DNA from: a virus
Lineage: Duplodnaviria; Heunggongvirae; Uroviricota; Caudoviricetes
Reading direction: 5' to 3' (one strand)
DNA length: 37,884 nt
IMG/VR virus record: IMGVR_UViG_2537562092_000002
Span: 1-37,884 of that record
In this document: positions 8,901-36,516 of the stretch, in pieces
Numbering within the stretch: the first letter of the stretch is position 1
How the letters are laid out: each line of letters begins with the position of its first letter
Program-made: the position numbers and the translations under genes
Notes under the pieces: model-generated
Seen by the model: only the letters and a program-made list of their open reading frames with translations
Databases searched by the model: none
Told to the model about the DNA's origin: nothing

Positions 8901-9770
<870 letters not shown>

Positions 9771-11912: not shown

Positions 11913-11914
11913 TT

Positions 11915-12628
11915 CTACCGTCCTATCGAAATATAACTGAATCTGTATTGCTGTGAGATATCACTGGTTGCCACATGCCACGCTGAATTACTGATATGTT
12001 CAAAATTTACAGACAAAACCTGCGGGGCAGGATTCGACGGGTCTGACTGAACGGCATCAGACATAACACTGACTGAAACCATCGGCTGATTAGGGAATGG
12101 TATAGGGAAGTGTCCACTGATAAAGCGGGTCGTGTTTCCTGAAAAAGTGCCAAACTGAACAATATATCCACCTGGTAGCCCGAACCATCCCGAACCAGAA
12201 GCGAATGCTCCCATATCCGGTATCTGATTATCTCCTGTGCCCACATCCCTTTTCGCCGCTTCTCCTAAACCAAGGTTTTCGAGAGCCGTTTTCACCGTGC
12301 CATCCGATTTGATATCGCCAAACGGATTCTTGCGGCTCAGGTATTCAACAGCAAACCCCGATCCCAGCAATTCAACAAAACCGGGCAGATCACCATTATC
12401 AAGCACATCCCGTTGCGTTTTATCACTTACAAACTGGGCCAGAGCTGCAGCAATAAAGCTGGCCTGCCGAATAACCTTATTGACTTGCGCACTGGATGCT
12501 TTCCCTGCTGTAAATCCGGATATAAGCGCAGGCAACGCTTCCCATTCCTCCTGCGACATAACATTGGCATTTCGATCAGTTGCAAACGCTTTAAAGTCAT
12601 TTTTCGCCATCAGAGTAATACTCCCCAT
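11915..12628 (-). CDS. Tail fibre (S-like): constant N-terminal part plus variable C-terminal part inside the invertible segment
   Basis: The gix site at 12260..12285 lies in-frame (..[13 protein letters not shown]..), so the C-terminal ~115 aa are exchangeable on inversion; follows a gp48-like gene. Confidence 0.6.
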
Positions 12629-13290
12629 GCCCCTACATCAAAACCACTGATGAATTCGTTATCCATATCAAAACCAAAAAATTTAGAGCCTTCCGATGGA
12701 GTTTCCACCGAAGGTGTTTCAATGCCCCCCGCCCATACCCCGGCGGCTTTTACTGTTAGATACCCCTGTTTAATTGCCGCAATTAACTCACGCGATACAT
12801 CTGAAATATCAGTATCAGGAAAGACCCAGACCGATATCGTCATGTCCTGGTTATCGACTATCTGCATTCGCAGCCCGGATCCTGCTGTTGCCGCGTCAAG
12901 AATTGCCGGAAGCGAATCATTCCGTCCGTCCCAGTTATTAATCGCAATCTTCGCTTTAAGAATGACACGATAAGTTTCATCGCTGAGATACATGTATCCT
13001 GAATCAGGATCGTATGGTCCCTGCCATACCCCCTGATCATATCCAAGCCCGTCGGTATCCCAGCTGAAATAGACACCTGAGATAGGCTGGCTGACAACAC
13101 GGCTACGTCCGATCCACAATCCAAGAATGTCAAGTTGCACACCAACCGCAGAGTCAATATCAAATGCAGTAATCAGCCCTCTGGTGGCAGCCGCAACATC
13201 AATAAGTGGCCGGGTCATCAGATCAACATGCGCAAGAAATTTAGGTTTGGTGGCGTGGTAGTTCGTGATTAGTTCGGTGTATTTGCTCAT
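12610..13290 (-). CDS. Phage tail/baseplate protein (Mu gp48 / P2 gpI-like)
   Basis: Position between the baseplate J-like gene and the tail fibre; 226 aa. Confidence 0.5.
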
Positions 13291-14486
13291 GACTCCACCG
13301 TTATAACGATATTTTCCGGGGTACAGGACGTAGATTCGTTGTATCTGATATCAATGTTTGATGACGACAAAGCCCCCGGGGATTTCCCAATCGTCAGTTC
13401 CTGAATATCGTAATAGCGTGCATTCCCGCCACTCACCACGCCAAGATTCGCCGGTGAGTAAATGCGACTTAAAAGGACCGAATCACCAATCATCAGACTA
13501 TTGATATAGTCGGAAATAGCCTGCTGGATCTGCTGCCCTATCTGTGAGGTATAACCCGTAAAAACTTTTAATTTAATCCGGGCGTAAACAGGCACATCAC
13601 TGGAACGCGAGAATTTGATTACATGGGGATTGCCGTATTTATCCGGAACCGTAACGGATGTTGTACCGTGAGTGGCTGTCCCCTGGCCTTTATTTCCTCT
13701 GATAGCCTGAGCAATATCCGTCACATCACCGCCATCCACAATTACAGCAACAGAGTGTGGCGGTAACCCGTTACCGTCCTCCGAACCAGTATCGTTTTCA
13801 TAGAGTTTGTGGCGGGTTACACCGGTAACATTAGAAACAGCACCATCCAGTGCTTCAAATGGGGTTATTGATGGCAACGCAACACTTTGCGACTGGCGGA
13901 TACGTAACTCCGCATCAGTTTCTGCTGGAGTGCCTACAGTAGCTGCAGCAGGATTGGTTACCGAAACCCAGCCACGGGTTGGCGTATTAATTTCAGTGAT
14001 AGTTCCAGCCAGCGCCGCCACTGCACCACTGACAGAACATTTTGCGGTCACCATCACTGTACCATCCACGCCGACCACCACTGAAGCAGGCAAACGCCAT
14101 ATCACATTATTACTGTCTTTCACGCTGCCATTAATGATGGTTGTTCCGGCAGTTCCTGTAAGAAGCAAATCAACCGTAGAATTCGTCGCGCCTTTACGTG
14201 AAATACCATTTATTTTCACGTTACTGGTCAGTGCAGCCCCATAGCCGGTTGCCGGTGAAAAACAGTTGTAGACAGTTATCGCCATATTATTGGCATCATG
14301 AATCGCCAGCGCCATCAGAGCCACCATCTGGCCGTCTTTGCTGTCCGGTTCGAGGTAGGCATCACTGCCATAAATCTGCTGAAAATAGCTAATCAGGGTG
14401 CTGAGTATCGTCTGATAATCAGGCGCACTGATCCCCTCCGCGGTTACCTTTGCAGATAAACCGAGAGAATCAAGGTTCAGAGCCAT
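13287..14486 (-). CDS. Baseplate J-like protein (Mu gp47 / P2 gpJ family)
   Basis: 399-aa ORF in conserved baseplate gene order, overlapping neighbours by 4 nt. Confidence 0.55.
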   Translation of the reverse strand: MALNLDSLGLSAKVTAEGISAPDYQTILSTLISYFQQIYGSDAYLEPDSKDGQMVALMALAIHDANNMAITVYNCFSPATGYGAALTSNVKINGISRKGATNSTVDLLLTGTAGTTIINGSVKDSNNVIWRLPASVVVGVDGTVMVTAKCSVSGAVAALAGTITEINTPTRGWVSVTNPAAATVGTPAETDAELRIRQSQSVALPSITPFEALDGAVSNVTGVTRHKLYENDTGSEDGNGLPPHSVAVIVDGGDVTDIAQAIRGNKGQGTATHGTTSVTVPDKYGNPHVIKFSRSSDVPVYARIKLKVFTGYTSQIGQQIQQAISDYINSLMIGDSVLLSRIYSPANLGVVSGGNARYYDIQELTIGKSPGALSSSNIDIRYNESTSCTPENIVITVES

Positions 14487-14839
14487 TACGCCTCCGATGT
14501 AACAGTCGTTATTCCATAGAGAGTGTCGATTTCAGCGGAAAACATGACACGTCGGGTCGTGGTATCCACCGTCGTATTGAAAGAGAGGATTGATTTAACG
14601 CCCTGCGTTTCCAGAATGCGTTTTCTGATCGCTAGGTTGTAAGTTTCCGGTTTTTGCCTGCCCAGCACAGACTGGAACCACGGAGTCCCTTCGGTAGTGT
14701 CGAGAAACCATTGCCCATACCACAATTCGAATCGCGTTTTCACAGCCTGTGCCACGGCCTCAGGCGAGTTAATCAGCCAGGTGTCATCACCGCTGCCAAA
14801 GGTGTAATCGCCATCGGCGTCTTCACGTCTGTATCGCAT
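14486..14839 (-). CDS. Baseplate wedge protein (Mu gp46 / P2 gpW / T4 gp25-like)
   Basis: 117-aa ORF translationally coupled between the spike and J-like genes. Confidence 0.5.
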   Translation of the reverse strand: MRYRREDADGDYTFGSGDDTWLINSPEAVAQAVKTRFELWYGQWFLDTTEGTPWFQSVLGRQKPETYNLAIRKRILETQGVKSILSFNTTVDTTTRRVMFSAEIDTLYGITTVTSEA

Positions 14840-15591
14840 CAGTTTACCCCGTCGGTACTGCTTCCACCGCGCTGAACACCGCCATGAGTGTGCGTATCAT
14901 CGATTGGCTTGCCGTTAGCCTTAACGCTCCCCAAGAACTCAACAGCACCAGTGATTTTTGAAGCCACGCCAGAAACAACAGACCCCACCATGCCTCCCAT
15001 CCAGGTTAACAGGCCATGAATGGTTACTTTCTCAGAAAAATCAGCCAGAGGGGCAACCACATCAAGGCCCCCCGGAGCGACAATTTTAATTTTCCTGGTA
15101 TCAGGATTAAGCTCAAAATAGGTGCTGCCGTCATCACTACGCAACTGTGTGGCACTGGTATTAATACCGCTAATCTTCCTTGCCTGCGACTGGGGACCGA
15201 CAATACAAAACGCATCCGATAAATCATGCATTCTGTCATCGACCGGCTCCTGTATCCCGCCACTCTGCCACCAGAAATCAATACAACGATCGGCAAAAAT
15301 CACCAAACATTCATCACCGGCTTTAACTGGAAACGTTAGCGTACAGCCTCCGCCACGCGGGAATACCACTGGCACATCCACCAGCAATGGGTAATTTTTG
15401 GTAATGCGGTTGCCGTCGTTATCAATTTCAACGTAACGGATAGCAGGCTGTACAACCGCCGTCACCGCATCAGGAGCGAATGACTGAACAATGCCAGGCA
15501 AGGCGACACGGATCTGGTTCTTTGTTGTTTCCCGTTCAGATTTAAATGTTTCGGCAAGGTCGCCGCTGCGGGTCTGGTCAGATACTGCCAT
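14839..15591 (-). CDS. Baseplate spike/assembly protein (Mu gp45 / P2 gpV-like)
   Basis: 250-aa ORF at the gpV position upstream of gp46/gp47-like genes. Confidence 0.5.
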   Translation of the reverse strand: MAVSDQTRSGDLAETFKSERETTKNQIRVALPGIVQSFAPDAVTAVVQPAIRYVEIDNDGNRITKNYPLLVDVPVVFPRGGGCTLTFPVKAGDECLVIFADRCIDFWWQSGGIQEPVDDRMHDLSDAFCIVGPQSQARKISGINTSATQLRSDDGSTYFELNPDTRKIKIVAPGGLDVVAPLADFSEKVTIHGLLTWMGGMVGSVVSGVASKITGAVEFLGSVKANGKPIDDTHTHGGVQRGGSSTDGVN

Positions 15592-15610
15592 TTAGTAGGC
15601 TCCAGAAAGC

Positions 15611-15636
15611 AAAAAACCCGCCAAGTGGCGGGTTTG
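15611..15636 (-). terminator. Rho-independent terminator (bidirectional-looking) after the inserted cassette
   Basis: aaaaaacccgccaagtggcgggttt: 6-bp GC stem cccgcc/ggcggg with 4-nt loop, flanked by A6 and T3, between the 142-aa gene stop and the spike gene start. Confidence 0.7.
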
Positions 15637-15655
15637 AATTTTGAGAAATTTCAGC

Positions 15656-16084
15656 TTATGCAGTTAACGAGTCATCACCAATCTTCAGTAATTGATTAAC
15701 GATTGCATCGACCTCTTCCGCATCCAGAATTACACTTCTCGCGGTAATCCGGTTGATTTTCCGCTCAAGCTTGTAATCAGAATTAACACGTTGGGCATGC
15801 GTCATTTTCAGTTTAACGCCGATTTTCTTTACTGCGTTAACATCAACATCGTTAAGTGCAGCTGCCTCACCACTACAAAAGGCCGTATAGACTCGCATGT
15901 GAACTCCACCTTTTAGTTTTTCACCATCTTGTGTAGCGGTCGGTACCAGATTGTTGGTGATCCGTAAGGCGGAATGGTACATACCATAGTATGCTCGGCT
16001 AATAGCATTTCTCGTCCACATCTCACCGTTTAGAGCCAGGGAATGCTTAGCCAATTCAAGAAAACAGGTATGCTCAACCGACAT
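15656..16084 (-). CDS. Hypothetical protein, 142 aa; possibly HEPN-like; downstream gene of a two-gene cassette
   Basis: ATGA start/stop overlap with the upstream 243-aa gene; N-terminal ...RNAISRAYYGMYHSAL... resembles HEPN-type helices (R-x6-H); followed by a terminator. Confidence 0.45.
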   Translation of the reverse strand: MSVEHTCFLELAKHSLALNGEMWTRNAISRAYYGMYHSALRITNNLVPTATQDGEKLKGGVHMRVYTAFCSGEAAALNDVDVNAVKKIGVKLKMTHAQRVNSDYKLERKINRITARSVILDAEEVDAIVNQLLKIGDDSLTA

Positions 16085-16815
16085 TAGAGTTCCCCGGCTT
16101 CAAAGCATCCGACGCATTCTGAATCCGCAAGCCCCGCAATAATAATCTCATCAGCCAAGGCATTATTCATCTGCGAAAGAAGCACTGGATCGTCTGTTTT
16201 GACTTCAACGAACAGCGTATCAAGTTCTGACATTACATAAAAAACATGAGCGCCAGCAAGACGAGCGCGGTACTTTTCTGCAACGTTCATCATGAGCCGC
16301 CCAATAGTTTTTAGCTCCTGAGCATGATCTTTTTGGGTATGCAGATAATTGAGCGTGTCATACCATTTGCCCATATCTTCAGGGCGCGGTACTTCCATTG
16401 CAGTTAGCATCGGCATCACCTTTTCAAGCAAATCGATATCAACCCAGTATGCAGAAATTGTAGCAACCTCAGCCAATATCGTTGGATTAAGTGAATCAGA
16501 TGCTTTCTGAATCATCACATACTGGCGAGCATGCAAACCTAAGTTACGCAGCGCAATCGTATAGTTACAAAAAGAAACTGGATCGTTAGGCGCTATTCTC
16601 AACCCCCGCTCACAGAGTGAACATCCTTCATCTATTTCACCAAGAACAAGCTTAGCTAAGCCTTCAATTGATAGCCCCTGATAACGTTCAGGTAGTTTCT
16701 TCGCTTCACGAATGATTCGATGGATTTCAAACTCACTCAGAAGGTTTTCACCCTTAGTTAATGAAGGAGTCAGAAGATCTAACAGTTCTCCTGATTTTGG
16801 CTGCGCTAAACTCAT
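16084..16815 (-). CDS. Hypothetical protein, 243 aa; upstream gene of the two-gene cassette
   Basis: ORF preceded by a ~150-bp non-coding gap inside an otherwise tightly packed tail operon; no recognised motif. Confidence 0.45.
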   Translation of the reverse strand: MSLAQPKSGELLDLLTPSLTKGENLLSEFEIHRIIREAKKLPERYQGLSIEGLAKLVLGEIDEGCSLCERGLRIAPNDPVSFCNYTIALRNLGLHARQYVMIQKASDSLNPTILAEVATISAYWVDIDLLEKVMPMLTAMEVPRPEDMGKWYDTLNYLHTQKDHAQELKTIGRLMMNVAEKYRARLAGAHVFYVMSELDTLFVEVKTDDPVLLSQMNNALADEIIIAGLADSECVGCFEAGEL

Positions 16816-16964
16816 GTTTTAGTTATTCCTGGCTTTAATGAAGTAGCATATCGATGGCAATCCACCATCAAAAAGTCAGTGCAGTGTAATCGCTCGTCTC
16901 AAAAAACAACAGTTTTTAGAGCACATTTTGTTGTTTTTCAGGCGTTACGAATTTCAGGTTACCT

Positions 16965-17297
16965 TCACCCAGCCACTTTTTTACAAGGGAAAGATCCTAT
17001 GATTTTCGGCGCATCCATGCTGTTCTGCAGAAGCTGGACATTCAGGAAAGCTTTTCCGTTACGTTTCACAAACTCAAAGCCGTAATTGTTACCATCACGG
17101 GAAGGCATCAGGCCCATGTCCATTTTTATGTTTGAATAGTCACCATCTTTTCCCAGAAATTTTATCTTCTGTGATGTGACAGTTTCACCGTTAATAACAG
17201 TCATTCCGTCACCGGTCATCGTGTAGTTGCCGCACTGAATTGCAGCCATCGCCGGAGCAGTAACCATCATAACTAACGCCAAACATAACCGTTTCAT
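16965..17297 (-). CDS. Small secreted (signal-peptide) protein, ~110 aa
   Basis: Start MKRLCLALVMMVTAPAMAA is a typical Sec signal peptide; TAATG overlap with the stop of the baseplate-hub gene. Confidence 0.5.
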   Translation of the reverse strand: MKRLCLALVMMVTAPAMAAIQCGNYTMTGDGMTVINGETVTSQKIKFLGKDGDYSNIKMDMGLMPSRDGNNYGFEFVKRNGKAFLNVQLLQNSMDAPKIIGSFPCKKVAG

Positions 17298-18361
17298 TAA
17301 AGCCCTCTTTCCCTCGCTGATGAGGAAACAAGATCCGCCGCGCCACGCGCTTCGCACATCATATCCATGTACCACGCCTGGCCCCTTGTATCGCCAGTGT
17401 ACATAATCCCGCGCACAATATAAACGCCATCCGTTGCGATGCTGGCAGGTTGTGCTGTGGTGCCGCTGAGTGTGATATTTCCGTCCGTGTTCTGGTCGGT
17501 GCTCTGCCCACCAGCCATCGCAATATCATTGTTCGACAGCGCGGTGCGGTACACGGAAGCCTGATCCAGCTGAATAAGCCCGTTAACCCGGATGTTCGGA
17601 TTAATAAGCGCGCGGACGTTTACGCCGTTACCGATAGTCTGCTGCGGCATGCCAATAAGCCCGGTAGCGCTGTTGAGCACAATCGCTTCATGAACATATT
17701 CGTTATTCGCCACCATCTGGCGCTGACCGTCCACGAATTGCCATGTTGCGCCACATTGCCCGGCTACGTTATCCATTAGATGCCGCGTCATGCCAAAGAG
17801 TACCCGCCCCCGGGGGAATACAGTAGCAGGCATTTCAGGCGTCAGGCCTTCGGTCGCGCCTTTGGCCTCAAAGTCTTTCATCAGCGCACGGTTTACATCA
17901 GCGACCGTGTAACCGGCAGCCAGCGTCTGTGAGGTTATACTGGTGGCAAAAGCCAGATCAGTATCGGCTGCCTGAATCAGGACGTAGGAATCAACCGGGC
18001 TGTCTTTTCCTGTGACCGAGTAGCGAATTTCACCGCTGAAAATCAGTCCGTAGTTGCGGCCATCACTCTGGCCCACGTCCGCCGCATCAACCTCCCGCAC
18101 GGTCCCGACATCGCTTGCCGACACCTCCGGCGCGATACCGTCGTAACCCGCAATCAGACGCACTTTCGAAAACTCCTGCCCGGTAATTCGGTTCACAGTA
18201 TCTGCCGAGAGGTTATAAATTTTGATAGTCCCTACCCGGGACGCGCTGCTGATGTTGAACCAGTCGATCGTAAAGGTGACTTTGAAATCACTTAGCTCAA
18301 TTCCCTGACCGTTCCCGTCCACAAGCTGCAGCTCGAAATGTCTCATCCAGTTCTGTGTCAT
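17297..18361 (-). CDS. Baseplate hub / tail protein (Mu gp44 / P2 gpD-like)
   Basis: 354-aa ORF at the conserved position between the tape-measure-proximal genes and the baseplate spike. Confidence 0.5.
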   Translation of the reverse strand: MTQNWMRHFELQLVDGNGQGIELSDFKVTFTIDWFNISSASRVGTIKIYNLSADTVNRITGQEFSKVRLIAGYDGIAPEVSASDVGTVREVDAADVGQSDGRNYGLIFSGEIRYSVTGKDSPVDSYVLIQAADTDLAFATSITSQTLAAGYTVADVNRALMKDFEAKGATEGLTPEMPATVFPRGRVLFGMTRHLMDNVAGQCGATWQFVDGQRQMVANNEYVHEAIVLNSATGLIGMPQQTIGNGVNVRALINPNIRVNGLIQLDQASVYRTALSNNDIAMAGGQSTDQNTDGNITLSGTTAQPASIATDGVYIVRGIMYTGDTRGQAWYMDMMCEARGAADLVSSSARERGL

Positions 18362-18363
18362 GC

Positions 18364-18666
18364 TTACTCCGTTGATACCAGTAAATGACTGCGCCCGCCC
18401 AGGTCAGTTTTCGTGGGATAATCCTGTGTGTTGTCATCGCAGACCACCAACAGCTTAAAACCAAGTCCCATACAGGCGTACTGCGCCAGCAGGTCGGCAC
18501 CAGTGACGAGAGGAATACCGGAGATTACCGGCTCCCCTCTGTCGTTCTGCAGGTCCATAATCCAGTACAGATCGCGCCATATGATGCTAATCCGCCAGGT
18601 AACACCACCTAAGACGATGCTGAACTGCTGGTTGTCCGCTGTCAGCGGAATTTCCTGAATTGTCAT
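18364..18666 (-). CDS. Phage tail protein, 100 aa
   Basis: Tightly coupled ORF in the tail operon. Confidence 0.35.
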   Translation of the reverse strand: MTIQEIPLTADNQQFSIVLGGVTWRISIIWRDLYWIMDLQNDRGEPVISGIPLVTGADLLAQYACMGLGFKLLVVCDDNTQDYPTKTDLGGRSHLLVSTE

Positions 18667-19253
18667 TAGCCGCCCCCCAGTAATGACGCCACGTTACCCG
18701 TGATGCTTTTCAGCAGTGAAGTATCTGGAGGCTTTGTGGTTTTGTTGCCGCTATTCTGTACCGCCGACGTGCTGGCCCCTTCCTTCATGTTGGTTTTATC
18801 CGCGACGGTAATCTGCTGTGTCCGGGAGATAAGGACCTCCCTCAGGGTGAGGACGGCAGACAGGACGTTTTCGGTTGTCTTGTCCGTCGTCACTTCCAGC
18901 GCCCGGATCAACATGTTGCTGTACAGTCGTTTACCGGTTACCACATCGAAGGGGATACGGCTTTCCTGCAGATCCAGTAGCTCCTGATACGTCTGCTGAG
19001 GACTCAGGCCGAGCAGGCTGGTAGCCGTCAGATTACTGGCAAAATCCAGCAATGCGCCGCCACCGGCGAAACCAACCTCCATCACCACTTCTGACGGTTT
19101 TTTATAGGCATGATCAGCGACAGCGGCCCCAACCTCTACCGGATGCTCTGTTATTTCAAGCATATCTGTATGCTTCTCTGAAATAACAACACTGGGAACA
19201 ATCATTCCTATTTTTCTGCTCTGCTGATGAAAAAGTGTAGAGAGAATATCCAC
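18666..19253 (-). CDS. Phage tail/baseplate assembly protein, 195 aa
   Basis: Tightly coupled ORF directly downstream of the tape measure gene. Confidence 0.35.
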   Translation of the reverse strand: MDILSTLFHQQSRKIGMIVPSVVISEKHTDMLEITEHPVEVGAAVADHAYKKPSEVVMEVGFAGGGALLDFASNLTATSLLGLSPQQTYQELLDLQESRIPFDVVTGKRLYSNMLIRALEVTTDKTTENVLSAVLTLREVLISRTQQITVADKTNMKEGASTSAVQNSGNKTTKPPDTSLLKSITGNVASLLGGG

Positions 19254-21262
19254 TAACCCACCCTCACCTGATTACTTCGCATGACCTGAGCATTTGCAGA
19301 CTGTTGCCGACGTGCAACCTCATTACCGACAGCGTGCGGATCTCCGCCACCGTAAATGTGGTAGGTATTTTGCTGGTTAACCTCTGTCACTTTGCCACTA
19401 ATTCCCGCCACGGCAGCCTTATTAATCAGCTCTCGAGAATAGATATTTCTTCCATTCTCATGCTGGATAATGCTGCTCATCAATGCTGACATGGTTTGCG
19501 GATCGCTCATATTCAGGGCAGCCCGGGGATCCACTCCCAGTCGTTGCGATACAGCCCTGATATACGCAGTTGTGTTGTTATTATCAGACGCAGGTGCCCA
19601 GGTAGAGATAATTTTCTCCACACTGTTTATTCCCCGTCCGGCGTACAGCATTAACTGACGAGCAAGAGCCCGTAATCCATCAAAGGCAGTTTCAAATCTG
19701 GCAAATCGCCCGCCCGGGCGTTCAAGAGAAGCCCCTGCCTGACCAGCAAAATTAAGGTTTCCCGGATTGTTATTCCGTTCTCCTCGTTTCGTAGCCTGTG
19801 CATGTTGTTCCGGCTCATCATCACCAAACCAGCCGCGTACCGTCCGGCCCACACTGCGGGGATCAAATCCCCAGTGCTCTTTAATCCAGTCGGCAGTACT
19901 GTTAGCGCTGTCTGTAACCATCGGCATCGCTGACGGATTTTCGCTGCCCTGATTAAGTATCTGTTTGCCGATGCTGACGGCATCAGCCCAGCGGCCATCT
20001 TTGATAGCGTTGAGCAGGTCGGCGATCATGTTCAGCATTTTGCTGAATTCGCCCATCTGGTCGATGAAGTTGCTGAAATCCCACTTCAGGGACCATGATT
20101 TGGGGTCAATATTGAGCAGTTTCGCCAGCGCTTTCACCAGGTCGTTAACGGTCGTTTTAAGGTCACGAACCATCTTCAGCGCGGCATCAACCTCCGGTTT
20201 CCACTTGCCCCAGTCAATCAGGCTGTCGCCGCCTTCCTTCCAGGTCTGATAGTCCTCCCACAGGAGGGCAATCCCCGCCGCCAGCGCGGTAATGAGGCCA
20301 ATCGGCGACATCCAGAACGTACTGTTCAGAATGCGCAGCGCAATCGTCAGTGCGCCAAACAGCGAGATCAACTCCCGCGTTTGCTTATCCAGCGATTGCC
20401 ACCAGGTGATGAGGCCTGATGTCCCCTCAATCAGTCTGAAGAACAGCCGCCCGATAATATCCCCGAGCGCCAGAATGCCTTTTATGGCTTTCGTCAGGGT
20501 CTGCTCGATACGCGGGAAGTTGTCCAGGATATGGCGGCGCAGTGTGTCCAGCGAACCCGCAAGCCCACCCGCAAGATTAGAGCCGATTTTGTCACGGGCC
20601 ATGCCTGCCATCGCGCCAAACTCACGCAGGGAGGTCATAAATTTGTTGGAGCTTCTGGCCGCCTCGTCAGCATTGAAGCCGATAGCTTTCGCCATTGCGC
20701 TGTACTGCCCGGAGAAGCCACCCACACCGCGACGCATAGCCAACAGGGTATTTTCGTCAATGCCCAGCATCTGCGCATACTGGTTAGCACGGTAATACGG
20801 CATGTCGCTGAGCTTCTGGCCTACCCCTGTAAAAATAGCGGCCATGTCACGCATGTTACCGCTGGCATCCCGTGTCTGTACCCCCAGACGATTCAGAAAT
20901 CCCTCCGCCCCGGGATTATTACGAATAAACCGGGAGAGGTTTTCCAGAGAAGATCGCGCAGCGTCCACGCTGCCGCCAACCTGCGAAACCGCATAGCCAA
21001 TAGACTGAATTCCCTGGACTGTCGCGCCGGTGCGCTGTGACGCCCAGTAAAGATTATCCAGGCCGGAGGCGATCTTAGCCGTGAAGGCCACCACGGACAG
21101 CGCCGCTCCTTCGACGGCCAGCCCCATTTTGATGACATTTGCAGTTGTACCGGCGAGGACAGAACCGAATTTTTTCGCTCCTGCATCATCCACACTGAAG
21201 CCAAGCGAGACAAGGAAATCTTTAATAGTCTCGGCGTTCATTATCCTCTCTCCATTTCTCAA
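19253..21262 (-). CDS. Tail tape measure protein, possibly with a C-terminal muralytic domain
   Basis: 669-aa protein with Ala/Gly-rich, helix-prone repeats; the largest gene in the tail cluster, downstream of the tube and chaperone genes. Confidence 0.6.
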   Translation of the reverse strand: MRNGERIMNAETIKDFLVSLGFSVDDAGAKKFGSVLAGTTANVIKMGLAVEGAALSVVAFTAKIASGLDNLYWASQRTGATVQGIQSIGYAVSQVGGSVDAARSSLENLSRFIRNNPGAEGFLNRLGVQTRDASGNMRDMAAIFTGVGQKLSDMPYYRANQYAQMLGIDENTLLAMRRGVGGFSGQYSAMAKAIGFNADEAARSSNKFMTSLREFGAMAGMARDKIGSNLAGGLAGSLDTLRRHILDNFPRIEQTLTKAIKGILALGDIIGRLFFRLIEGTSGLITWWQSLDKQTRELISLFGALTIALRILNSTFWMSPIGLITALAAGIALLWEDYQTWKEGGDSLIDWGKWKPEVDAALKMVRDLKTTVNDLVKALAKLLNIDPKSWSLKWDFSNFIDQMGEFSKMLNMIADLLNAIKDGRWADAVSIGKQILNQGSENPSAMPMVTDSANSTADWIKEHWGFDPRSVGRTVRGWFGDDEPEQHAQATKRGERNNNPGNLNFAGQAGASLERPGGRFARFETAFDGLRALARQLMLYAGRGINSVEKIISTWAPASDNNNTTAYIRAVSQRLGVDPRAALNMSDPQTMSALMSSIIQHENGRNIYSRELINKAAVAGISGKVTEVNQQNTYHIYGGGDPHAVGNEVARRQQSANAQVMRSNQVRVG

Positions 21263-21418
21263 TGCGCCGCTGGTTATCCGCTTTTACCGCCAGATGGTCA
21301 TTCAAGAGAGCAATGTCGTACAAATCGACAGAGCCATCTTTAAGTGCTGTATAAGGAATTAACCCGGCGTCAACCGGATTGAGAAGGTAGGACAGCCCGT
21401 CCGGCAGGCTGTTAAACG

Positions 21419-21871
21419 TCAGCCCTGTTGCAGGCTCTGCGTCGTGCTGGTAAGGGGTGTAGGCAAAAAATTTCCCAGCGAATCGGCGACCACCCGCGCC
21501 ACCAGCTGCAGCATGACCAGCAGGTCAATATCATCAAACATCAGTTCGCCCTGGGTAAATACCGGCACCCATCCGTCCATATGACGCCGCGATACCACCG
21601 CAAGACAGGGATGAATAATCGCATCGGTGTCATCTTCGGTCAGGGAAGACAGTTCCTCAGCGATACGCGGGAGCATGGTTTCAAACACCGGTTTTAACTG
21701 CTCGAATTTCACGGTGTCGATTTTGCCGTCAGCAGGCAAACGGGAGCGAATGCTCCCGAAATCTGACATCATTCCCGCCAGTACCGGCAGAAGTTTGCGG
21801 GTCACTTTCAGCTGGTCAAAAACGCTGAGTTTTGCCACGCGATATTTCACGCCTTTGATTTCGAATTCCAT
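21419..21871 (-). CDS. Tail assembly chaperone
   Basis: 150-aa ORF between the tube and tape measure genes, followed by a 156-bp apparent gap. Confidence 0.4.
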   Translation of the reverse strand: MEFEIKGVKYRVAKLSVFDQLKVTRKLLPVLAGMMSDFGSIRSRLPADGKIDTVKFEQLKPVFETMLPRIAEELSSLTEDDTDAIIHPCLAVVSRRHMDGWVPVFTQGELMFDDIDLLVMLQLVARVVADSLGNFLPTPLTSTTQSLQQG

Positions 21872-21874
21872 GTA

Positions 21875-22315
21875 TTAAAACTCCCCGAGAACCTGGTCAA
21901 TCTTGCCGCAGTCAAACACCCACGGCATCGTATTACCGGTTTTAGCGTTGGCATTATCCGGTTGTTTCTGGAACGCAACACTGCGTGCCGTGATGATGTC
22001 GCCGCTGACCTTGTTGCGGATCACGATAACGTTATTCCCCCATGTGGCAGAAGACTGGCTCTGTGCGTTATACGCCAGCGACAATTTTTTATTTGTCGGT
22101 GATGTCTTCAGAAGGTTAACGGTAATCGTCCCGCTTTTATCTGCATGGAGGCTGTGCATCACTTCACCATCAGCACCGATGGTCATGGTGTTTTTAGGAC
22201 CGCCCATCGCAACCACAATCCCCTCTTCAGAACTTGCAGAACCGTACCCGAGGTCAATCGAACCGGTCGGGCCGGTCAGCGTCGCAGTGACATCCATAAA
22301 AGAATAGGTAGACAT
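21875..22315 (-). CDS. Tail tube protein
   Basis: 146-aa ORF immediately downstream of the sheath gene. Confidence 0.5.
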   Translation of the reverse strand: MSTYSFMDVTATLTGPTGSIDLGYGSASSEEGIVVAMGGPKNTMTIGADGEVMHSLHADKSGTITVNLLKTSPTNKKLSLAYNAQSQSSATWGNNVIVIRNKVSGDIITARSVAFQKQPDNANAKTGNTMPWVFDCGKIDQVLGEF

Positions 22316-22325
22316 TCACTTCCCC

Positions 22326-23471
22326 TTAGCGAACAACGTTAATCTGTACGTCAGCGTAATGAACCGCGCCTGCAAGTTTTATTGCAGCCTGAATCACCGG
22401 AGCCTTACGGGCTTCACGTTCTGATTGTGCCTGTTCATCCAGCGGCTGGGCGTATACGTAATAACCTTTGGGCAGTGTGTCACCTGATGACAACTGACCA
22501 AGGTCGCCCCCGTTCCATACGCCCGGAGCAATCAGTCCATTCTGAACGGCCTGATCCAGTGATTTTTCAACATTTGATAACAGTCGGGTAATACCGGCTT
22601 CAGTCTGGGGAACTTTCGTGGTGCTGGTATAAAGCAGGTTATAGAGGTTGGTCTGCACATAATTCTGTAACCAGTCCAGGCCGTGGCGTTCATCAAAGAA
22701 ATCGCCGTTAGCCATCACTCCCTGCTGGAGGATAGCCGTATCATTCTGGTAGTACACGAATACATTGCAGTTTTTTGCATCAAGTGCCGATGCCTGGCTG
22801 ACTGTCAGTGTTTCATACCCGACACCCGGCTCCTGCTTAAACTTGAGCGTAATCGCGGTATTACTGCCATTGAAATTAACCGTGAATACCCGGCCAAATG
22901 CAGATAACGCAGCGTATTTATTACCCGATGAATACTGAATAAAACTGCGTGAATATCCGGCGGTTTTCAGTTTTGATGCCAAATCATCGCTGGATGCAGT
23001 CTGCAGGCATTTATCATCGCTTGTCGTAATCGCCAGAATACGGCTTACAGAAGAGGATTCGATCGCCGCAGCCACTTTCAGCCAGTCTGCATCCGGAATA
23101 TCTTCATCGTCTGCAATCCCCAGCCCATACCATGAAGTATAATCGAGCATGGCATTCACAGCCTGCTCCAGCGTCTCAGGCGTGGCCTGTTCGCTGTCAC
23201 CCTTCGTTTTCACCCAACGACCAACAAAAACCTCCTGAGGTTTCGGTGATTGTGAGAAAAACACCTGCGCAGCCTTATATTCTGGTGATTCCACGCCAAA
23301 ATCTTTTCCAATATCTTCCGCGGCAGAATAACGGCGAATGCGCTCACTTACCGGAATGATTGTGGACGGGCCGAGAATGAGTAATGCACCAAAATTTCGC
23401 CCTGATGCTGCACGCGGCGACATGATCACATCAACATTAACAACGTTTGATACAGGCAAGCCCTGTGCCAT
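22326..23471 (-). CDS. Contractile tail sheath protein
   Basis: 381-aa ORF heading the tail cluster, followed by tube, chaperone and tape measure. Confidence 0.55.
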
Positions 23472-23474
23472 AGC

Positions 23475-24755
23475 TTAATCTCCGAAAAAGATGACTGGTG
23501 CTTCCACCAGCGATTTAATACCGTACTCGCGCACAACCTTCCGGCGCAGGCGCACCGTCATATCGTAGCGGCGGACCCATTGCTGATTAATAAATTCAGG
23601 GAAGGGGGTCAGACCTGTGTAATCGCCAAGAGACAGCCCCAGCGCATTCAGTGCTGCATTGTTCTGCGGTACAGATATACCGTCACGAAACCGGGACGCA
23701 TACACCATCCCCGCCGGACCATAAAACGAAGCCATACACTCAATCGTTTCATGCCGCCAGAGCTTAGAGCCATCATCGGTCTGTCTGGTGAATGCCGGAC
23801 TGTCATCACCTGACCATCCGATACCCAGTTTGATATGCGCATCAACGGCAGCCTGTACCCATTCGGATGGAATCAGGACGCCTTCCGCTGATGCGCTGTA
23901 GTTCAGATCAAGTTCCTGTGCCACCACCACCGGATTATCGATTTTCTCGCATTCCCTGCGATACCACTCTTCATCCTTGCGAGGATCATCCCGCCAGTGG
24001 AATGTGAATACCGGTATCTTCCCGCCATGACGCTTCTGAGCGAACGGGTTAGCCATGCCGTTAACTGAACTCAGGTCGATACGGCAACGCGTCGTTTGTG
24101 ACAACGCCGCATCAATCAGCAGAGGACGCTGAAGGAATGCAGCCTCATCAACCAGATAAAGCGTGGTACGGTCACCACGACCAATATTATCGCCAGCCTC
24201 GCCTTTGATAACGGCACCAGTTTCAGGAAACTCAACACGCATATATGGCGCGTGCTTCTTCTCACTCCACGAACCGCGAAACTCTACAGGTAGCGTTTCC
24301 ACGAACTTGCGCGCCTTCCAGAACAATGCTTTCGGGTCACCAGTGCTGTCGACGTATTCCTCTTTACGGGAGCCAAAACCGATAACCATTTCTTTGTTGA
24401 AGAGACAAAGCGAGCATGCCAGTCCGATCGCGGTCCAACTGAGCCCCATTTCACGGGATTTTTCGGTAATACCATTCTCCCGATTGCTCCAGCGTTCCAT
24501 AATCCAGTGGATCCACTCCTCCTGCTTAGGGAAGAGTAAAAACGGAATGGTCACCGGCAGGCCATAATCAATATTACGCGGGTCCGTTGTCATGCCCCAG
24601 TCGATGATGAACTGAGCCGGATTGGTTCGGTAAAACTGTTTTAGTGCAGGCAATATTTCAGGATTCTGGCGAATGCGCTGTAGGCGTTCCATCCGCCATT
24701 CAAAAACCATCTGGTAATCAGGATGTTTAAAATCGAAGGGGAATGGTAACGGCAT
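23475..24755 (-). CDS. Terminase large subunit (TerL), possibly C-terminally truncated or fused
   Basis: Deviant Walker A-like [11 protein letters not shown] and Walker B-like [10 protein letters not shown]; follows terS. Only ~220 aa remain after Walker B, and the next gene is the tail sheath rather than a portal. Confidence 0.6.
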
Positions 24756-26203: not shown

Positions 26204-26674
26204 TCATCGAAGGCATTGCGTCCTGATGTATTCCTGCAAGTAGTTAACCTGCGCGGTTATCCTGTCGATTCCACTTCGGAGACGGTAATAATTGAGTTCA
26301 GCATCTGCTGTAAGTCTTGGGCTTTCTCCATCGCCCATGCTGCTGGCTCCGGTCGTTGACTTTGCACAGGTGGCGGCGACTTGCAGGCGCTTACGCCCAG
26401 CAGAAACATCAGCACGGAGACTTTCGATAGTCGCGTTAGCATCAGCAAGCTCCTTTGTGTATCTTGCGTCGAGTTCTGCTACATCACGTTGACGCTTCCG
26501 CATGTCAGCGATGGTGGCGTTCGCCTTCTCCAGTTCACTGGCCTTGTTATCGCGCTGCTCTTTGTAGGCGATTGCGTTATCACGGTAATGATTAACAGCC
26601 AATGACAGGCAGACGATGATGCAGATAACCAGAGCGGAGATAATCGCGGTTACTCTACTCATTGTTGCCCCCAC
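26204..26674 (-). CDS. Rz: Spanin inner-membrane subunit Rz (i-spanin)
   Basis: [38 protein letters not shown]... closely resembles lambda Rz; follows the endolysin. Confidence 0.85.
26257..26448 (-). CDS. Rz1: Spanin outer-membrane lipoprotein Rz1 (o-spanin), embedded in Rz in another frame
   Basis: [29 protein letters not shown]... has a lipobox (LGVSAC) and Pro-rich segment, wholly inside Rz. Confidence 0.7.
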
Positions 26675-27156
26675 AAACAGACTTCACGCTCAATCTCACG
26701 GCGAGTCATCAGCCCTTTCCATTGCTTACCGCCAGCGTATGTCCAGCGCCGTAGCTGATCACATGCGCCTTTGATATCGCCCTGGTTTATTTTGCGAAGA
26801 AGCGTCGATGTTCTGAAATTTCCAGCACCAACGTTGTAAACGAACGAGTAAAGAGCGCCGCGCGTTGTTTCCGGTATATCGACTTTGATGTACGGGTTAA
26901 TTTGTCTGGCGACAGTGGCAAGGTCTTTATTCAGGAGGGCTTTGCATTCTGCTTCGGTATACGTTTTACCGAGCATAATGTCTTTTCCGGTATGCCCGTA
27001 ACATACAGTCCATACACCAACGATATCTTTATATGGTATGTAGCTGACGCCTTCCAGACCATCGTTACCACTTGGGCCAGTGATTAACACAGATGCTATA
27101 GCAATAGCCCCGCCACCAATAGCCGCAGCAACGGCTTTTCGTAATGATGGAGGCAT
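26659..27156 (-). CDS. R: SAR endolysin (lysozyme, phage 21 R-type)
   Basis: N-terminal signal-anchor-release segment [20 protein letters not shown] followed by a lysozyme domain; matches phage 21 R as recalled. Confidence 0.85.
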
Positions 27157-27371
27157 TATTCACCTCTCGCAGCCTTTCTTCTGTCTTCTCTGATTTTGAA
27201 GTACAGATTTGTCAGATAGGTGAGAAAGCCCAACACAAGGCTTCCAAGCACCCCAATCGCAGCCCACTGTGATGGACTGACCTGATCCAACCACTGCAAA
27301 AACCAGTATCCCGCACTACCAGCGGATGTTCCGTAGGCAATGCCAGTTGAGATTTTGTCCATTGATTTCAT
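27156..27371 (-). CDS. S: Pinholin (phage 21 S-type), dual-start holin/antiholin
   Basis: [71 protein letters not shown] matches S21 (71/68-aa forms from M1/M4). Confidence 0.85.
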
Positions 27372-27489: not shown

Positions 27490-27565
27490 TGGTGCTGGTT
27501 AACGGACTTGAACCGCTACCCATTCGCTTACAAGGCGACCGCTCTACCATTGGAGCTAAACCAGC
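27490..27565 (-). tRNA. Phage-encoded tRNA, anticodon UGU (Thr) by manual folding
   Basis: Reverse complement GCTGGTTTAGCTCCAATGGTAGAGCGGTCGCCTTGTAAGCGAATGGGTAGCGGTTCAAGTCCGTTAACCAGCACCA folds as a cloverleaf (7-bp acceptor, GGTTCAAGTCC T-arm, loop CUUGUAA). Confidence 0.6.
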
Positions 27566-27570
27566 ATATT

Positions 27571-27645
27571 TGGCGGGACAGCGTGGACTCGAACCACGAT
27601 AAGAAGGTTAACAGCCTTCCGTAATGACCTTTATACGACTGACCC
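27571..27645 (-). tRNA. Phage-encoded tRNA, anticodon GUU (Asn) by manual folding; slightly degenerate D-arm
   Basis: Reverse complement GGGTCAGTCGTATAAAGGTCATTACGGAAGGCTGTTAACCTTCTTATCGTGGTTCGAGTCCACGCTGTCCCGCCA: perfect anticodon and T stems, loop CUGUUAA, one acceptor mismatch. Confidence 0.5.
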
Positions 27646-27649
27646 AAAT

Positions 27650-27691
27650 AAAAAAAGCCACCGTTGCAACTTAAGAGTCACTAACGGCAGC
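27650..27691 (-). terminator. tR-prime-like terminator downstream of Q (late-promoter leader region)
   Basis: Minus strand gctgccgtt(17-nt loop)aacggtggc followed by T7; located between Q and the tRNA/lysis genes as in lambdoid PR-prime/qut/tR-prime units. Confidence 0.45.
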
Positions 27692-27736
27692 TTATGCGAA
27701 TAGTGTTGCTCATTTGCTCAATGATGTCAACACGTT

Positions 27737-28282
27737 CTATGCTACATGTTTAATTTTCTCTACACGTTTCCGGTTTTTAAACGCACTATCCAGAACCGGG
27801 TAAATCATAAACAACGAGGCATTGAGGATTTCGTCAACTTCCCGTCGACAGGTTGCGAGCGATGGTTTTTGAATGCGCCCGCCGCCCCGGCATAACATCT
27901 TGCGAGGTCTTGCGACGCGATGATAGTAAGATGCAATGGCGTGCTTGGAAGAGCCGTGGGCGTAGTAGCTGAGGAGGATGCCAAAGGCTTTCTTGTCAAT
28001 GTACATGACGGAATCGACGACCTGAGAAATCAACATTCCATCATCATCATTACACATTGGCCTTGTCATAACTCTTCCCGGCTCTACGCTCTCCATGAAC
28101 TTAGCTATTACGCTGCTCATGCGCTTTTCCAGACGACCTGAATAAACCCATGCGCCCCACAGTTCAAGCCAGCCATTCAGCCACTCGTGCTGTTCTTTGG
28201 TGAGGTTTAGTTCTCTTATGCCCATGCGCCTTCTCCCTTGTGATCTGGAATGGTTTTTACTGAGAACGTCATGCGGCCTCAC
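27737..28282 (-). CDS. Q: Late-gene antiterminator Q (phage 21/82-type); start may be MGIRELNL at ~28225
   Basis: ...[27 protein letters not shown]... and Cys-rich C-terminal region resemble lambdoid Q proteins; sits upstream of the late terminator and lysis genes. Confidence 0.75.
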
Positions 28283-28790
28283 TTCTGCTGTTTCGCAGGT
28301 CTTTGAGTTTCTGCTGATACTCCGCCTTGATGGCCCTGCACTCTTCGACAGTCCAGCGATGGCGGTTATGGTTTGATTCGATTTCGTCTACTGCTTCCTG
28401 CCCGATGCGGCTAATCAGTTCGACGCGATACGGAACGAGATTTCCGCTTTTGTGCTGGTTGCACACCACGCATTGCTTGTGAATATTGCGTTCATCAAAT
28501 CGGAGTTGAGGTGCCGCAGCAGTTGTCCGGTAATGTCCGGCATCCCACTGAGCAGACGTGAGCGTTCCGCAAGAGATACATGGTAAGTCGCGGTCTCTTT
28601 CTCTGATGAAGGCGTTTACGGCTTGTTGGGCTTGTTTAATCCAGTAACTGCGGGGCTTTAAGGCGAGTTTTCTAATCTTAAGTTTATCTTTCTGTTCCTT
28701 CCACTGAGAGACTGCTGCATCGCTAATGCCTAACGCTTTAGCTACCGCACGCTGGGTTCCGAAGTGGTCGATAACATCTTTCTTGTACAT
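28269..28790 (-). CDS. In-frame fusion: P22-type Cro N-terminus (~31 aa) joined to lambda NinG/Rap C-terminal ~140 aa (deletion product)
   Basis: [32 protein letters not shown] matches P22 Cro; [43 protein letters not shown]...NSRSEAA matches the lambda NinG C-terminus. Confidence 0.75.
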
Positions 28791-28870
28791 AGACTCGCTC
28801 CGAAATTAAAGAACACTTAAATTATCTATCAAAGGAATCTTAAGTCAAGTTTATTTAAGATGTCTTAACT
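28791..28870. promoter_or_regulatory. Immunity region OR/PR/PRM with P22-type operators
   Basis: Divergent c2/cro intergenic region with three near-palindromic TTAAG(N)CTTAA-type operators (e.g. atttaagatgtcttaa, ttaaagaacacttaa, atcttaagtcaag). Confidence 0.65.
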
Positions 28871-29521
28871 ATGAATACACAACTGATGGGTGAGCGTATT
28901 CGCGCTCGCAGAAAAGAACTTAAGATTAGGCAGGCTGCCCTTGGCAAGATGGTTGGCGTGTCTAATGTTGCTATTTCCCAATGGGAGCGTTCTGAAACTG
29001 AGCCCAATGGCGAAAACCTATTGGCTTTAGCCAAGGCTTTACAGTGCTCCCCTGATTACTTGTTGAAAGGAGAAGATAGTCTTTCAAACATTGCCTATCA
29101 CAGCAGGCATGATCCAAGAGGTTCGTATCCTCTAATTAGTTGGGTAAGCGCAGGATGTTGGATGGAAGCTGTAGAGCCATATCATAAGCGTGCAATAGAT
29201 AACTGGTACGATACAACCGTAGATTGTTCAGAAGATTCGTTTTGGCTGGACGTAAAGGGTGATTCGATGACGGCTCCAGCCGGTCTTAGCATCCCGGAAG
29301 GGATGATAATACTAGTCGATCCTGAAGTAGAACCTCGTAATGGGAAGCTGGTAGTGGCAAAGCTCGAAGGAGAAAACGAGGCAACTTTCAAGAAGTTAGT
29401 TATTGATGCTGGCAGAAGGTTTCTAAAACCACTTAACCCACAATATCCGATGATTGAGATCAACGGGAACTGCAAAATCATCGGTGTAGTTGTCGATGCA
29501 AAAATAGCAAACCTTCCATAA
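28871..29521 (+). CDS. c2: Prophage repressor C2 (CI-like; HTH plus LexA-type S24 autopeptidase domain)
   Basis: MNTQLMGERIRARRKELKIRQAALGKMVGVSNVAISQWERSE... matches P22 C2; C-terminal domain carries GDSM and a Lys-containing dyad region. Confidence 0.9.
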   Translation: MNTQLMGERIRARRKELKIRQAALGKMVGVSNVAISQWERSETEPNGENLLALAKALQCSPDYLLKGEDSLSNIAYHSRHDPRGSYPLISWVSAGCWMEAVEPYHKRAIDNWYDTTVDCSEDSFWLDVKGDSMTAPAGLSIPEGMIILVDPEVEPRNGKLVVAKLEGENEATFKKLVIDAGRRFLKPLNPQYPMIEINGNCKIIGVVVDAKIANLP

Positions 29522-29685: not shown

Positions 29686-29726
29686 GCTCTTTAACATTGA
29701 TGGGATTGTCCCGCCGAAATGCGGGA
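29686..29726 (+). promoter_or_regulatory. nutL-like site (boxA plus boxB hairpin)
   Basis: boxA-like gctctttaaca followed by hairpin ccgccgaaatgcggg, upstream of the N-like gene. Confidence 0.5.
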
Positions 29727-29833: not shown

Positions 29834-30106
29834 ATGGCAGTAGTCATTACATATCTGGCTGACGATAACGCCAGAAATCGCCGCAGAGCACGCAGACAGG
29901 CTCAACGTGAGCAGGCAATGCAAGAACAGCGACTGGCGCGAAAAATTGCGCTAAAGCTCTCTGGTTGCGTCAGAGCAGACAAAGCAGCATCACTCGGAAG
30001 CCTTCGCTGCAAGAAGGCAGATGAATGCAGTGGAAGTATTTGCCTGCCAAACGTAGCCATTTACGCGGCAGGCTACCGGAAATCAAAACAACTGACGGCG
30101 AGATGA
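29834..30106 (+). CDS. N: N-type transcription antiterminator (P22 gene 24-like)
   Basis: Arg-rich motif NARNRRRARRQAQREQ near the N-terminus; C-terminus LPNVAIYAAGYRKSKQLTAR resembles P22 gp24. Confidence 0.75.
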   Translation: MAVVITYLADDNARNRRRARRQAQREQAMQEQRLARKIALKLSGCVRADKAASLGSLRCKKADECSGSICLPNVAIYAAGYRKSKQLTAR

Positions 30107-31333: not shown

Positions 31334-31405
31334 GCGCGGCGTTACCGCATACCAATAACGCTTCACTCGAGGCGTTTTTCGTTATGTATAAATAAGGAGC
31401 ACACC

Positions 31406-31570
31406 ATGCAATATGCCATTGCAGGGTGGCCTGTTGCTGGCTGCCCTTCCGAATCTTTACTTGAACGAATCACCCGTAAATTACGTGACGGATGGAAACG
31501 CCTTATCGACATACTTAATCAGCCAGGAGTCCCAAAAAATGGATCAAACACTTATGGCTATCCAGACTAA
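31406..31570 (+). CDS. cIII: CIII (FtsH inhibitor stabilising CII)
   Basis: Translates to [54 protein letters not shown], matching lambda CIII; below the ORF-track length cutoff. Confidence 0.85.
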   Translation: MQYAIAGWPVAGCPSESLLERITRKLRDGWKRLIDILNQPGVPKNGSNTYGYPD

Positions 31571-35064: not shown

Positions 35065-35386
35065 GGCCTGTCAGTTTCTTAAGATATCCAGACCAACCGC
35101 CACCAACTGGATACGAACAGGCCGCCTACAGGCAACACGTAAAGATCCAACCAAGCCAAAATCTCCTTACCTCACAACACGGCAAGCCTGCATTGCGGCG
35201 CTTCAGTCTCCGCTGCATACTGTCCAGGTGAGCGCGGGTGATGGCATAACAGAGGAAAGAAAATGTCACTCTTCCGCAGAAGTGAAATATGGTACGCCAG
35301 TTTCACATTGCCGAACGGTAAAAGATTTAAACAGTCTCTTGGAACAAAGGACAAAAGGCAGGCGACAGAGCTCCATGACAAGCTAA
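35036..35386 (+). CDS. xis: Excisionase (P22 Xis-like)
   Basis: [45 protein letters not shown]... is an HTH excisionase whose 3' end overlaps the int start, as in P22. Confidence 0.7.
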
Positions 35387-36426
35387 AGGCTGAAGCATGG
35401 CGGGTCAGCAAACTTGGTGAAATACCTGATATGACGTTTGAGGAAGCGTGTGTCAGGTGGCTCGAAGAGAAAGCACATAAGAAATCACTGGACGATGACA
35501 AAAGCCGGATCGGATTCTGGCTTCAACATTTCGCAGGGATGCAACTAAGAGACATCACTGAATCAAAAATTTATTCAGCGATGCAGAAAATGACAAACCG
35601 GCGTCATGAGGAAAACTGGAAACTCAGGGCAGAAGCATGCAGAAAAAAAGGGAAACCTGTTCCAGAATACACGCCAAAACCAGCGTCCGTTGCAACGAAG
35701 GCTACGCATCTTTCATTTATAAAGGCCCTGCTAAGAGCCGCAGAGCGTGAATGGAAAATGCTGGATAAGGCACCAATTATTAAAGTGCCTCAACCAAAGA
35801 ATAAACGGATCCGCTGGCTGGAGCCCCATGAAGCACAAAGGCTGATTGATGAATGTCCGGAGCCATTAAAGTCTGTTGTTGAATTTGCACTGGCAACAGG
35901 CTTAAGACGCTCGAACATCATCAACCTTGAATGGCAACAAATAGATATGCAGCGCCGGGTGGCATGGATAAACCCGGAAGAGAGTAAATCAAACCGCGCA
36001 ATCGGCGTTGCGCTGAATGATACTGCATGTCGCGTATTGAAAAAACAAATCGGGAATCATCACCGTTGGGTATTTGTGTACAAGGAAAGCTGTACCAAAC
36101 CAGACGGAACGAAAGCGCCAACAGTAAGGAAGATGCGGTATGACGCAAACACAGCCTGGAAAGCGGCGCTGAGACGGGCTGGTATTGATGATTTCAGATT
36201 TCACGACTTGAGACACACCTGGGCAAGTTGGCTGGTTCAAGCCGGAGTCCCGTTGTCAGTGTTACAGGAAATGGGAGGCTGGGAGTCTATCGAAATGGTT
36301 CGTCGATATGCTCACCTTGCACCTAATCACCTTACCGAACACGCACGGCAAATAGACTCGATCCTGAACCCATCGGTCCCAAATTTGTCCCAGTCAAAAA
36401 ATAAGGAAGGTACTAATGATGTGTAA
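35263..36426 (+). CDS. int: Tyrosine integrase (P22 Int-like), thrW-specific
   Basis: [48 protein letters not shown]... with C-terminal R...HxxR...Y catalytic region ([15 protein letters not shown]); its stop codon abuts the att repeat next to thrW. Confidence 0.9.
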
Positions 36427-36486
36427 CTTATTGATTTAAATGGTGCCGATAATAGGAGTCGAACCTACGACCTTCGCATTACGAAT
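36424..36486. repeat. Prophage attR: 63-bp direct repeat overlapping the 3' part of intact thrW
   Basis: Identical to 6606..6668. Confidence 0.85.
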
Positions 36487-36516
36487 GCGCTGCTCTACCA
36501 ACTGAGCTATATCGGC
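36441..36516 (-). tRNA. thrW: tRNA-Thr (anticodon CGU), thrW
   Basis: Reverse complement GCCGATATAGCTCAGTTGGTAGAGCAGCGCATTCGTAATGCGAAGGTCGTAGGTTCGACTCCTATTATCGGCACCA is a canonical 76-nt cloverleaf with CGT anticodon, adjacent to proA as in E. coli. Confidence 0.9.

Follow-up and report, generated by a model that had tools for sequence, protein, structure and literature searches.

In phage lambda, Q is normally expressed only when N-modified transcription starting at PR passes tR1 and the terminators of the nin region, a path of ~4–5 kb. Lambda nin deletions (e.g., nin5) are the classical N-independent mutants, and nin5 phages remain viable. The O gene of lambda contains the replication origin. 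Among the lambdoid prophages of Escherichia coli, DLP12, Rac and Qin are defective elements, also referred to as "cryptic" or "grounded". Defective prophages of this kind have been reviewed (PMC6379469). In temperate Salmonella prophages, loss of just the portal gene or just the capsid gene is enough for mitomycin C treatment to give tail particles that kill (PMC10670071).

Here we analyze a lambdoid prophage in a 37,884-nt stretch of DNA (IMG/VR record IMGVR_UViG_2537562092_000002; hereafter, the window), in which an open reading frame (ORF) joining the start of cro to the end of ninG is followed by Q. We read this ORF as the scar of a single illegitimate-recombination deletion of ~3.5–4 kb in a lambdoid prophage, a reading to which we assign a probability of roughly 0.88. 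As in the lambda nin mutants, a deletion extending from PR-proximal genes toward Q would remove the nin terminators and free Q from N antitermination. Unlike nin5, however, the cro::ninG deletion starts within cro and also takes nutR, tR1, cII, O, P and ren, and replication and the Cro/CII switch appear to be lost with them. The element likewise resembles prophages of the DLP12, Rac and Qin type in being lambdoid, in occupying a tRNA site and in having lost essential genes while keeping regulatory, lysis and accessory genes. It is nevertheless much younger than these, with remaining genes 95–100% identical to those of intact relatives, and it shows two clean deletions only, with no IS insertion inside the prophage and with both att sites and int intact.

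The att sites are 63-nt direct repeats of the 3′ end of thrW, found to be 100% identical in a repeat search. attL lies at 6606–6668 and attR at 36424–36486, the latter inside and next to the tRNA-Thr gene thrW (36441–36516) and adjoining proA and int (35263–36426), which encodes a 387-aa integrase. The element measures 29.9 kb as compared with ~41.8 kb for its relative, and the two deletions together account for the difference. The PL operon is intact, with N, sieB, cIII, kil, gam, bet and exo all in place. Rfam matches in the window comprise three tRNAs and the cIII thermoregulator (Lambda_thermo; 31393–31451, + strand, 88.5 bits) only.

The fusion ORF (28269–28790, − strand) has an ATG start in the ORF list and encodes 173 aa. 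An earlier note on this DNA had proposed that its N-terminus is that of P22 Cro, through ...SQWKE, and that it continues without a frame break into the C-terminal ~140 aa of NinG; both parts of the proposal held up at the coordinates given, well beyond what chance would produce. Fusion residues 1–32 are identical to the P22 Cro structure 1RZS (PDB; 32/32 aa), and the first 96 nt are identical to the intact P22-type cro of locus L012 from E. coli AMSHJX01, our cro reference (96/96), with the upstream OR/PR region also matching intact prophages. Nucleotides 95–522 are identical to the intact ninG of our ninG reference, locus L001 from E. coli 2018-10-2CC (428/428). The encoded protein is Cro 1–32 joined in frame to NinG 63–203 (141 aa). 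By nucleotide identity, the cro-derived segment (codons 1–32, covering helices 1–3 with the helix-turn-helix) occupies 28695–28790, and the ninG-derived segment (codons 63–203 plus the stop codon) occupies 28269–28696, both on the − strand. Pfam searches recovered both parents. P22_Cro (PF14549) matched fusion residues 3–32 (E = 3.6e-13; 49.5 bits, cut-off 30.2) over profile positions 2–31 of 60, i.e., as an incomplete domain, and NinG (PF05766) matched residues 28–167 (E = 5.4e-71; 238.9 bits, cut-off 25.4) over profile positions 53–192 of 193, with positions 1–52 missing.

A three-way alignment of cro, the fusion and ninG placed the crossover, which the earlier note had left to be pinpointed, at window positions 28695/28696. 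Here the coding strand reads AA, and the parents overlap in a 2-nt microhomology (nt 95–96 of the ORF, window 28696–28695), with 5 of 7 positions matching between them in the heptamer around the crossover. The junction sequence is GCAGTCTCTCAGTGGAAGGAACAGAAAGATAAACTTAAG. Farther downstream, the ninG–Q segment is 99.9% identical in nucleotide sequence to phage 21, and the ninG–Q junction, with a ninH remnant and without ninI, reads as the normal phage 21 layout, lying outside the cro::ninG deletion.

What the deletion removed was judged from two intact relatives. L013 (E. coli SCU-301) has a matching immunity region and matching ninG, Q, tRNA and lysis modules; L001 sits at the same thrW site and has matching late genes and a different immunity region. 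Where the window has the junction, L013 carries a cro-to-ninG block with the gene order cro-nutR-cII-O-P-ren-ninB-methyltransferase-ninE-ninF-ninG, its intact cro encoding 61 aa. The stretch missing relative to L013 (4395–8348 of that locus) amounts to ~3.95 kb, or to ~3.5 kb if the parent resembled L001, whose nin region is without the methylase. With L013 proteins as tblastn queries, no match to Cro 33–61, CII, O, P, Ren, NinB, NinE, NinF or NinG 1–60 was found in the 37.9-kb window, consistent with the earlier claim that the genes between cro and ninG are absent and leaving no complete cro elsewhere in the window. The only nut site left is nutL (29687–29725, + strand), with boxA GCTCTTTAAC and boxB CCCGCCGAAATGCGGG. 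The boxB hairpin occurs a single time in the window, at nutL (29710–29725), and in L013 a matching boxA/boxB pair (nutR) directly follows the cro stop codon. Because boxB is present only once, we take nutR to be deleted. Nothing is left of O, P or cII, and of the 61 residues of Cro, a five-helix fold, only 32 remain; this gene content strongly suggests that the prophage cannot replicate autonomously and is without Cro and CII function.

The OR operator region with PR and PRM (28791–28870) lies between the fusion ORF and c2 and is identical to that of L013 (80/80 nt). The fusion ORF is the first gene behind PR, which a consensus scan predicts to be TTGACT-16-GATAAT (28848–28821, − strand; 10/12 matches), and it is divergent from c2 across the OR operators. 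The c2 gene (28871–29521, + strand) is intact and encodes a LexA-like repressor of 216 aa (HTH_3 plus Peptidase_S24 in Pfam) identical to that of L013 (216/216 aa). The seemingly truncated c2 (119 aa) of L002 and L004 reflects how the gene was called; at the DNA level these loci match the window at 100%. The N antiterminator gene is also intact (29834–30106, + strand; 90 aa, 100% identical in amino acid sequence to L013 N).

On the other side of the scar, the intact Q gene (27737–28225, − strand) encodes an antiterminator of phage 21 type (162 aa; Phage_antitermQ in Pfam) with 100% amino acid identity to L001 Q. It starts 43 nt past the stop codon of the fusion, bearing out the earlier statement that Q follows directly, and the distance from the predicted PR to Q is ~0.6 kb. 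No terminator-like site was found on the − strand from PR to the end of Q in a consensus scan, which is blind to Rho-dependent termination. Reading of the sequence beyond Q predicts a late promoter PR′ (TTGACA ...) and a tR′ terminator-like hairpin with a T-run (27650–27736, − strand); this region is of phage 21 type and 99.9% identical to phage 21. The stretch from PR′ to the lysis genes contains tRNA-Asn (27571–27645) and tRNA-Thr (27490–27565), both on the − strand and both detected by ARAGORN and Rfam. The intact lysis cassette (26204–27371, − strand) comprises holin S (27156–27371), lysozyme R (26659–27156) and Rz (26204–26674), of which S and R are full length and 100% identical in amino acid sequence to their L001 counterparts.

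With PR ~0.6 kb from Q, and with nutR and the whole interval deleted, late transcription from PR′ would now be N-independent and immediate on derepression. Upon cleavage of c2 in the SOS response, PR would read ~0.6 kb directly into Q with no requirement for N, and Q would then promote early PR′ transcription of the lysis genes, followed by the tail genes, from a single non-replicating copy. We infer that this regulatory effect, PR leading straight to Q, is the important consequence of the deletion and that the fusion protein is a by-product.

The prophage carries a second large deletion, of head genes, which was not mentioned in the earlier note. BLAST against L001, Pfam and tblastn delimit an in-frame fusion of TerL to a neck/tail terminator (23475–24755, − strand; 426 aa), in which TerL 1 to ~312 is joined to terminator residues 68–182 and Pfam places Phage_tail_terminator_9 on residues 311–424. 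Alignment of this junction located the crossover at 23820–23823, at a 4-nt microhomology (GATA). Relative to L001, the deletion measures ~7.2 kb by BLAST and has taken the TerL C-terminus, the portal, a minor head protein, a DUF2213 protein, a cement protein, the major capsid protein and four connector genes. No BLAST match spanning the TerL::terminator junction was found in 5,426 complete E. coli genomes or 50,697 phage records, and both scars occur together on the two contigs that are long enough to show both (2/2).

Next to this scar lies a complete contractile-tail module (10410–23471, − strand) with sheath, tube, chaperone, tape measure, baseplate, spike and fibres with an invertible segment. 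The homologous tail proteins of L001 were all matched at full length, mostly with 95–100% identity. Three genes of the module (~15656–17375) form a divergent swapped block with intact ORFs. Within 15635–16963, the baseplate-region ORFs 15656–16084 and 16084–16815 are not homologous to their L001 counterparts (29% identity or no match), and neither has a Pfam match. At the far end of the module, a gene for a pin-type DNA invertase (9829–10419, − strand) stands beside oppositely oriented ORFs for a fibre C-terminus and fibre assembly (10410–11936), so that 9829–11936 resembles the invertible host-range segments of Mu and P1.

Of the alternatives to a chance scar, the one that survives best is that the element is a domesticated nascent tailocin or SOS-triggered lysis module, in which both deletions have been retained around c2-PR-Q-lysis and the contractile tail because jointly they leave a cassette that neither makes heads nor replicates. 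We consider it unlikely. What is left does amount to the gene complement of a tailocin (Q, holin/lysozyme/Rz, full-length tail genes and a LexA-like repressor of S24 type), replication and head genes are gone as in a tailocin, both scars are in frame, so that neither brings a premature stop into the operon, and the element also carries a PD-T4-3 defence gene. The portal-only and capsid-only Salmonella deletions cited above point in the same direction (PMC10670071). However, residues 1–67 of the neck/tail terminator are missing, with ~312 residues of TerL in their place, and the adjoining connector genes are deleted, which makes tail completion doubtful. Moreover, the known copies are 99.8–100% identical and so show no sign that the element has been under purifying selection or kept over the long term, chance alone would give two in-frame scars in about one case out of nine, and the absence of both junctions from 5,426 complete E. 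coli genomes indicates a rare lineage marker, not a widespread system. R-type tailocins and engineered head-less prophages (PMC10670071) share with the element a contractile tail plus lysis cassette, an SOS-cleavable repressor and the lack of head and replication genes, a likeness in gene content; here, by contrast, the tail terminator is truncated and fused, the tail-completion set is incomplete, and the element still has int, att, the Red genes and terS. If domestication were nonetheless true, two clean in-frame deletions would have reduced a lambdoid myovirus prophage of 41 kb, intact until then, to a cassette of 30 kb, giving a very young natural tailocin or altruistic lysis module, at its first domestication step, in a human-gut E. 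coli lineage, and induced cells would release killing tails or lyse altruistically.

The repressor fold of P22 Cro comprises five to six helices, and the protein is a monomer when not bound to DNA (PMC6649833). From Cro, the fusion retains helices 1–3, recognition helix included; from NinG, it retains the C-terminal 141 aa as compared with the ~200 aa of the full-length protein. In an alignment of 29 NinG homologues, the N-terminal cysteine motif (C-x2-4-C ... C-x3-C/H) is nearly invariant, and this motif is absent from the fusion. The invariant residues of the core are kept (C71, C74, H86, C107, C110, N111, H141 and H144 in fusion numbering). AlphaFold2 modeled the fusion with a pLDDT of 40 from the single sequence and of 66 with a 30-sequence NinG alignment, the Cro part reaching 41–62, and a Foldseek search of the low-confidence model against the PDB gave no match at E <1. 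With just three helices left out of five, the fusion protein is probably inactive as Cro, and it would be at best a crippled nuclease.

An independent function for this protein, whether the Cro helix-turn-helix guides the NinG nuclease core to operator DNA or the truncated Cro represses PR/PRM, is more doubtful still. The ORF has kept the native cro ribosome-binding site and start codon and, as the first ORF behind PR, should be abundant on induction; the recognition helix and every invariant NinG core residue are also still in place. Yet the Cro part is reduced to 32 of 61 residues, about three of five or six helices (PMC6649833), and is modeled with low confidence, the nearly invariant cysteine motif of NinG is gone, and microhomology alone explains where the junction lies. 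Furthermore, no second Cro::NinG was found among 1,316 NinG homologues, and the N-termini of the other fusions in that set are unrelated.

Those other chimeras are P::NinG (P0047 and P0048), Ren::NinG (P0134) and DUF550::NinG (P0025). Locus L015 (E. coli GCA_037560265.1) encodes P(1–88)::NinG(47–181), and locus L016 (E. coli GCA_025039315.1) encodes Ren(1–89)::NinG(97–203) and has a further deletion, which starts at the end of cro and stops within P at residue 33. The Ren::NinG prophage has lost cII, O and the start of P and has kept the repressor, cro, Q and the lysis genes. Like cro::ninG, these fusions are in-frame scars of PR-operon deletions that end inside ninG, but they have other upstream partners and junction positions, and none involves cro. 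Given these differences, we regard them as independent events. With four independent fusion types found, ninG reads as a recurrent end-point of PR-operon deletions, and the in-frame scars are simply those that are annotated as proteins.

The exact 173-aa protein is encoded on 18 public contigs, which include E. coli H494 and GCA_014636555.1, four metagenome assemblies of the human gut from ENA and five Logan run assemblies, and all carrier contigs are 99.8–100% identical to the window. In H494, the fusion product (EHN87181.1) is annotated only as "protein ninG". BLAST found no match spanning the cro::ninG junction in 5,426 complete E. coli genomes or in 50,697 phage records, a junction 39-mer had 0 matches each in GTDB species representatives, JGI metagenomes and IMG/VR, and a literature search found no paper describing a cro::ninG fusion. 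Variant copies are limited to L003 and L011, which show clustered substitutions typical of recombination patches; the ninG part of these copies has three synonymous changes, too few for a selection test. Because the same protein occurs on contigs from independent assemblies, we take the junction as a real marker of one circulating E. coli lineage. A chimeric join of two prophage regions during assembly or annotation can safely be set aside: long identical modules common to lambdoid prophages can mislead assemblers, and the junction is in none of the 5,426 complete (long-read) E. coli genomes, but the identical junction was obtained by different pipelines (two NCBI genomes, four ENA and five Logan assemblies), in some cases on contigs reaching 853 kb, and the 2-nt parental overlap is too short for repeat collapse.

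The attL-proximal end of the prophage holds accessory genes. Beside the pin invertase gene, a GIY-YIG protein gene (8997–9770, + strand) matches the PD-T4-3 anti-phage defence model (PADLOC, E = 8e-140) and could help explain why the host keeps the remnant. Between attL and this gene, 7316–8362 (− strand) encodes a 348-aa protein with a trypsin-like peptidase domain and weak matches to the protease domains of the RT-Protease, LmuA and HamA defence models. To the left of attL, 1–6605 is a different island with an IS1 transposase fragment and a gene for a DUF3987 protein; ORFs of 539 and 198 aa in this island have no Pfam match. DNA matching the island elsewhere in E. coli is annotated as YfjI-like, inovirus Gp2-type and "TOTE conflict system" primase genes. 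This suggests that the thrW site is occupied in tandem.

We thus return to the deletion scar as the preferred reading: the feature is ordinary prophage decay, a young scar in a defective lambdoid prophage. The traits of a defective prophage that were found are the att repeats, integrase and tRNA site, together with the absence of O, P, cII, the Cro and TerL C-termini, portal, capsid and connectors. In the course of events that we propose, the parent would have been a prophage with P22/21-type immunity and a contractile tail, its Q and lysis module being of phage 21 type, resident at thrW by proA in one E. coli lineage. A deletion from cro codon 32/33 to ninG codon 62/63, in frame by chance, would then have cut off the final 29 residues of Cro at one end and the N-terminal cysteine motif of NinG at the other, along with nutR, tR1, cII, O (including the origin), P, ren and the nin genes together with their terminators. 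The 2-nt and 4-nt microhomologies at the two junctions fit illegitimate recombination, and no observation speaks against the deletion itself. Together with the head-gene deletion, this event would have left a non-infectious remnant of a prophage whose induction would still be lethal. The copies are nearly identical, and the retention of the element, if induction is as lethal as proposed here, may simply reflect a recent event.

An annotation pipeline labels the leftover chimeric ORF simply "NinG" (EHN87181.1), and a single E. coli lineage, seen in several human-gut metagenomes, is precisely marked by both junction sequences. For lambdoid biology, the arrangement c2-PR-(0.6 kb)-Q-PR′-lysis-tail is an unusually clean natural construct, which could show how much of the lysis delay of lambda comes from the N-dependent path to Q and how much from replication, and whether a prophage remnant without heads can produce active tails.
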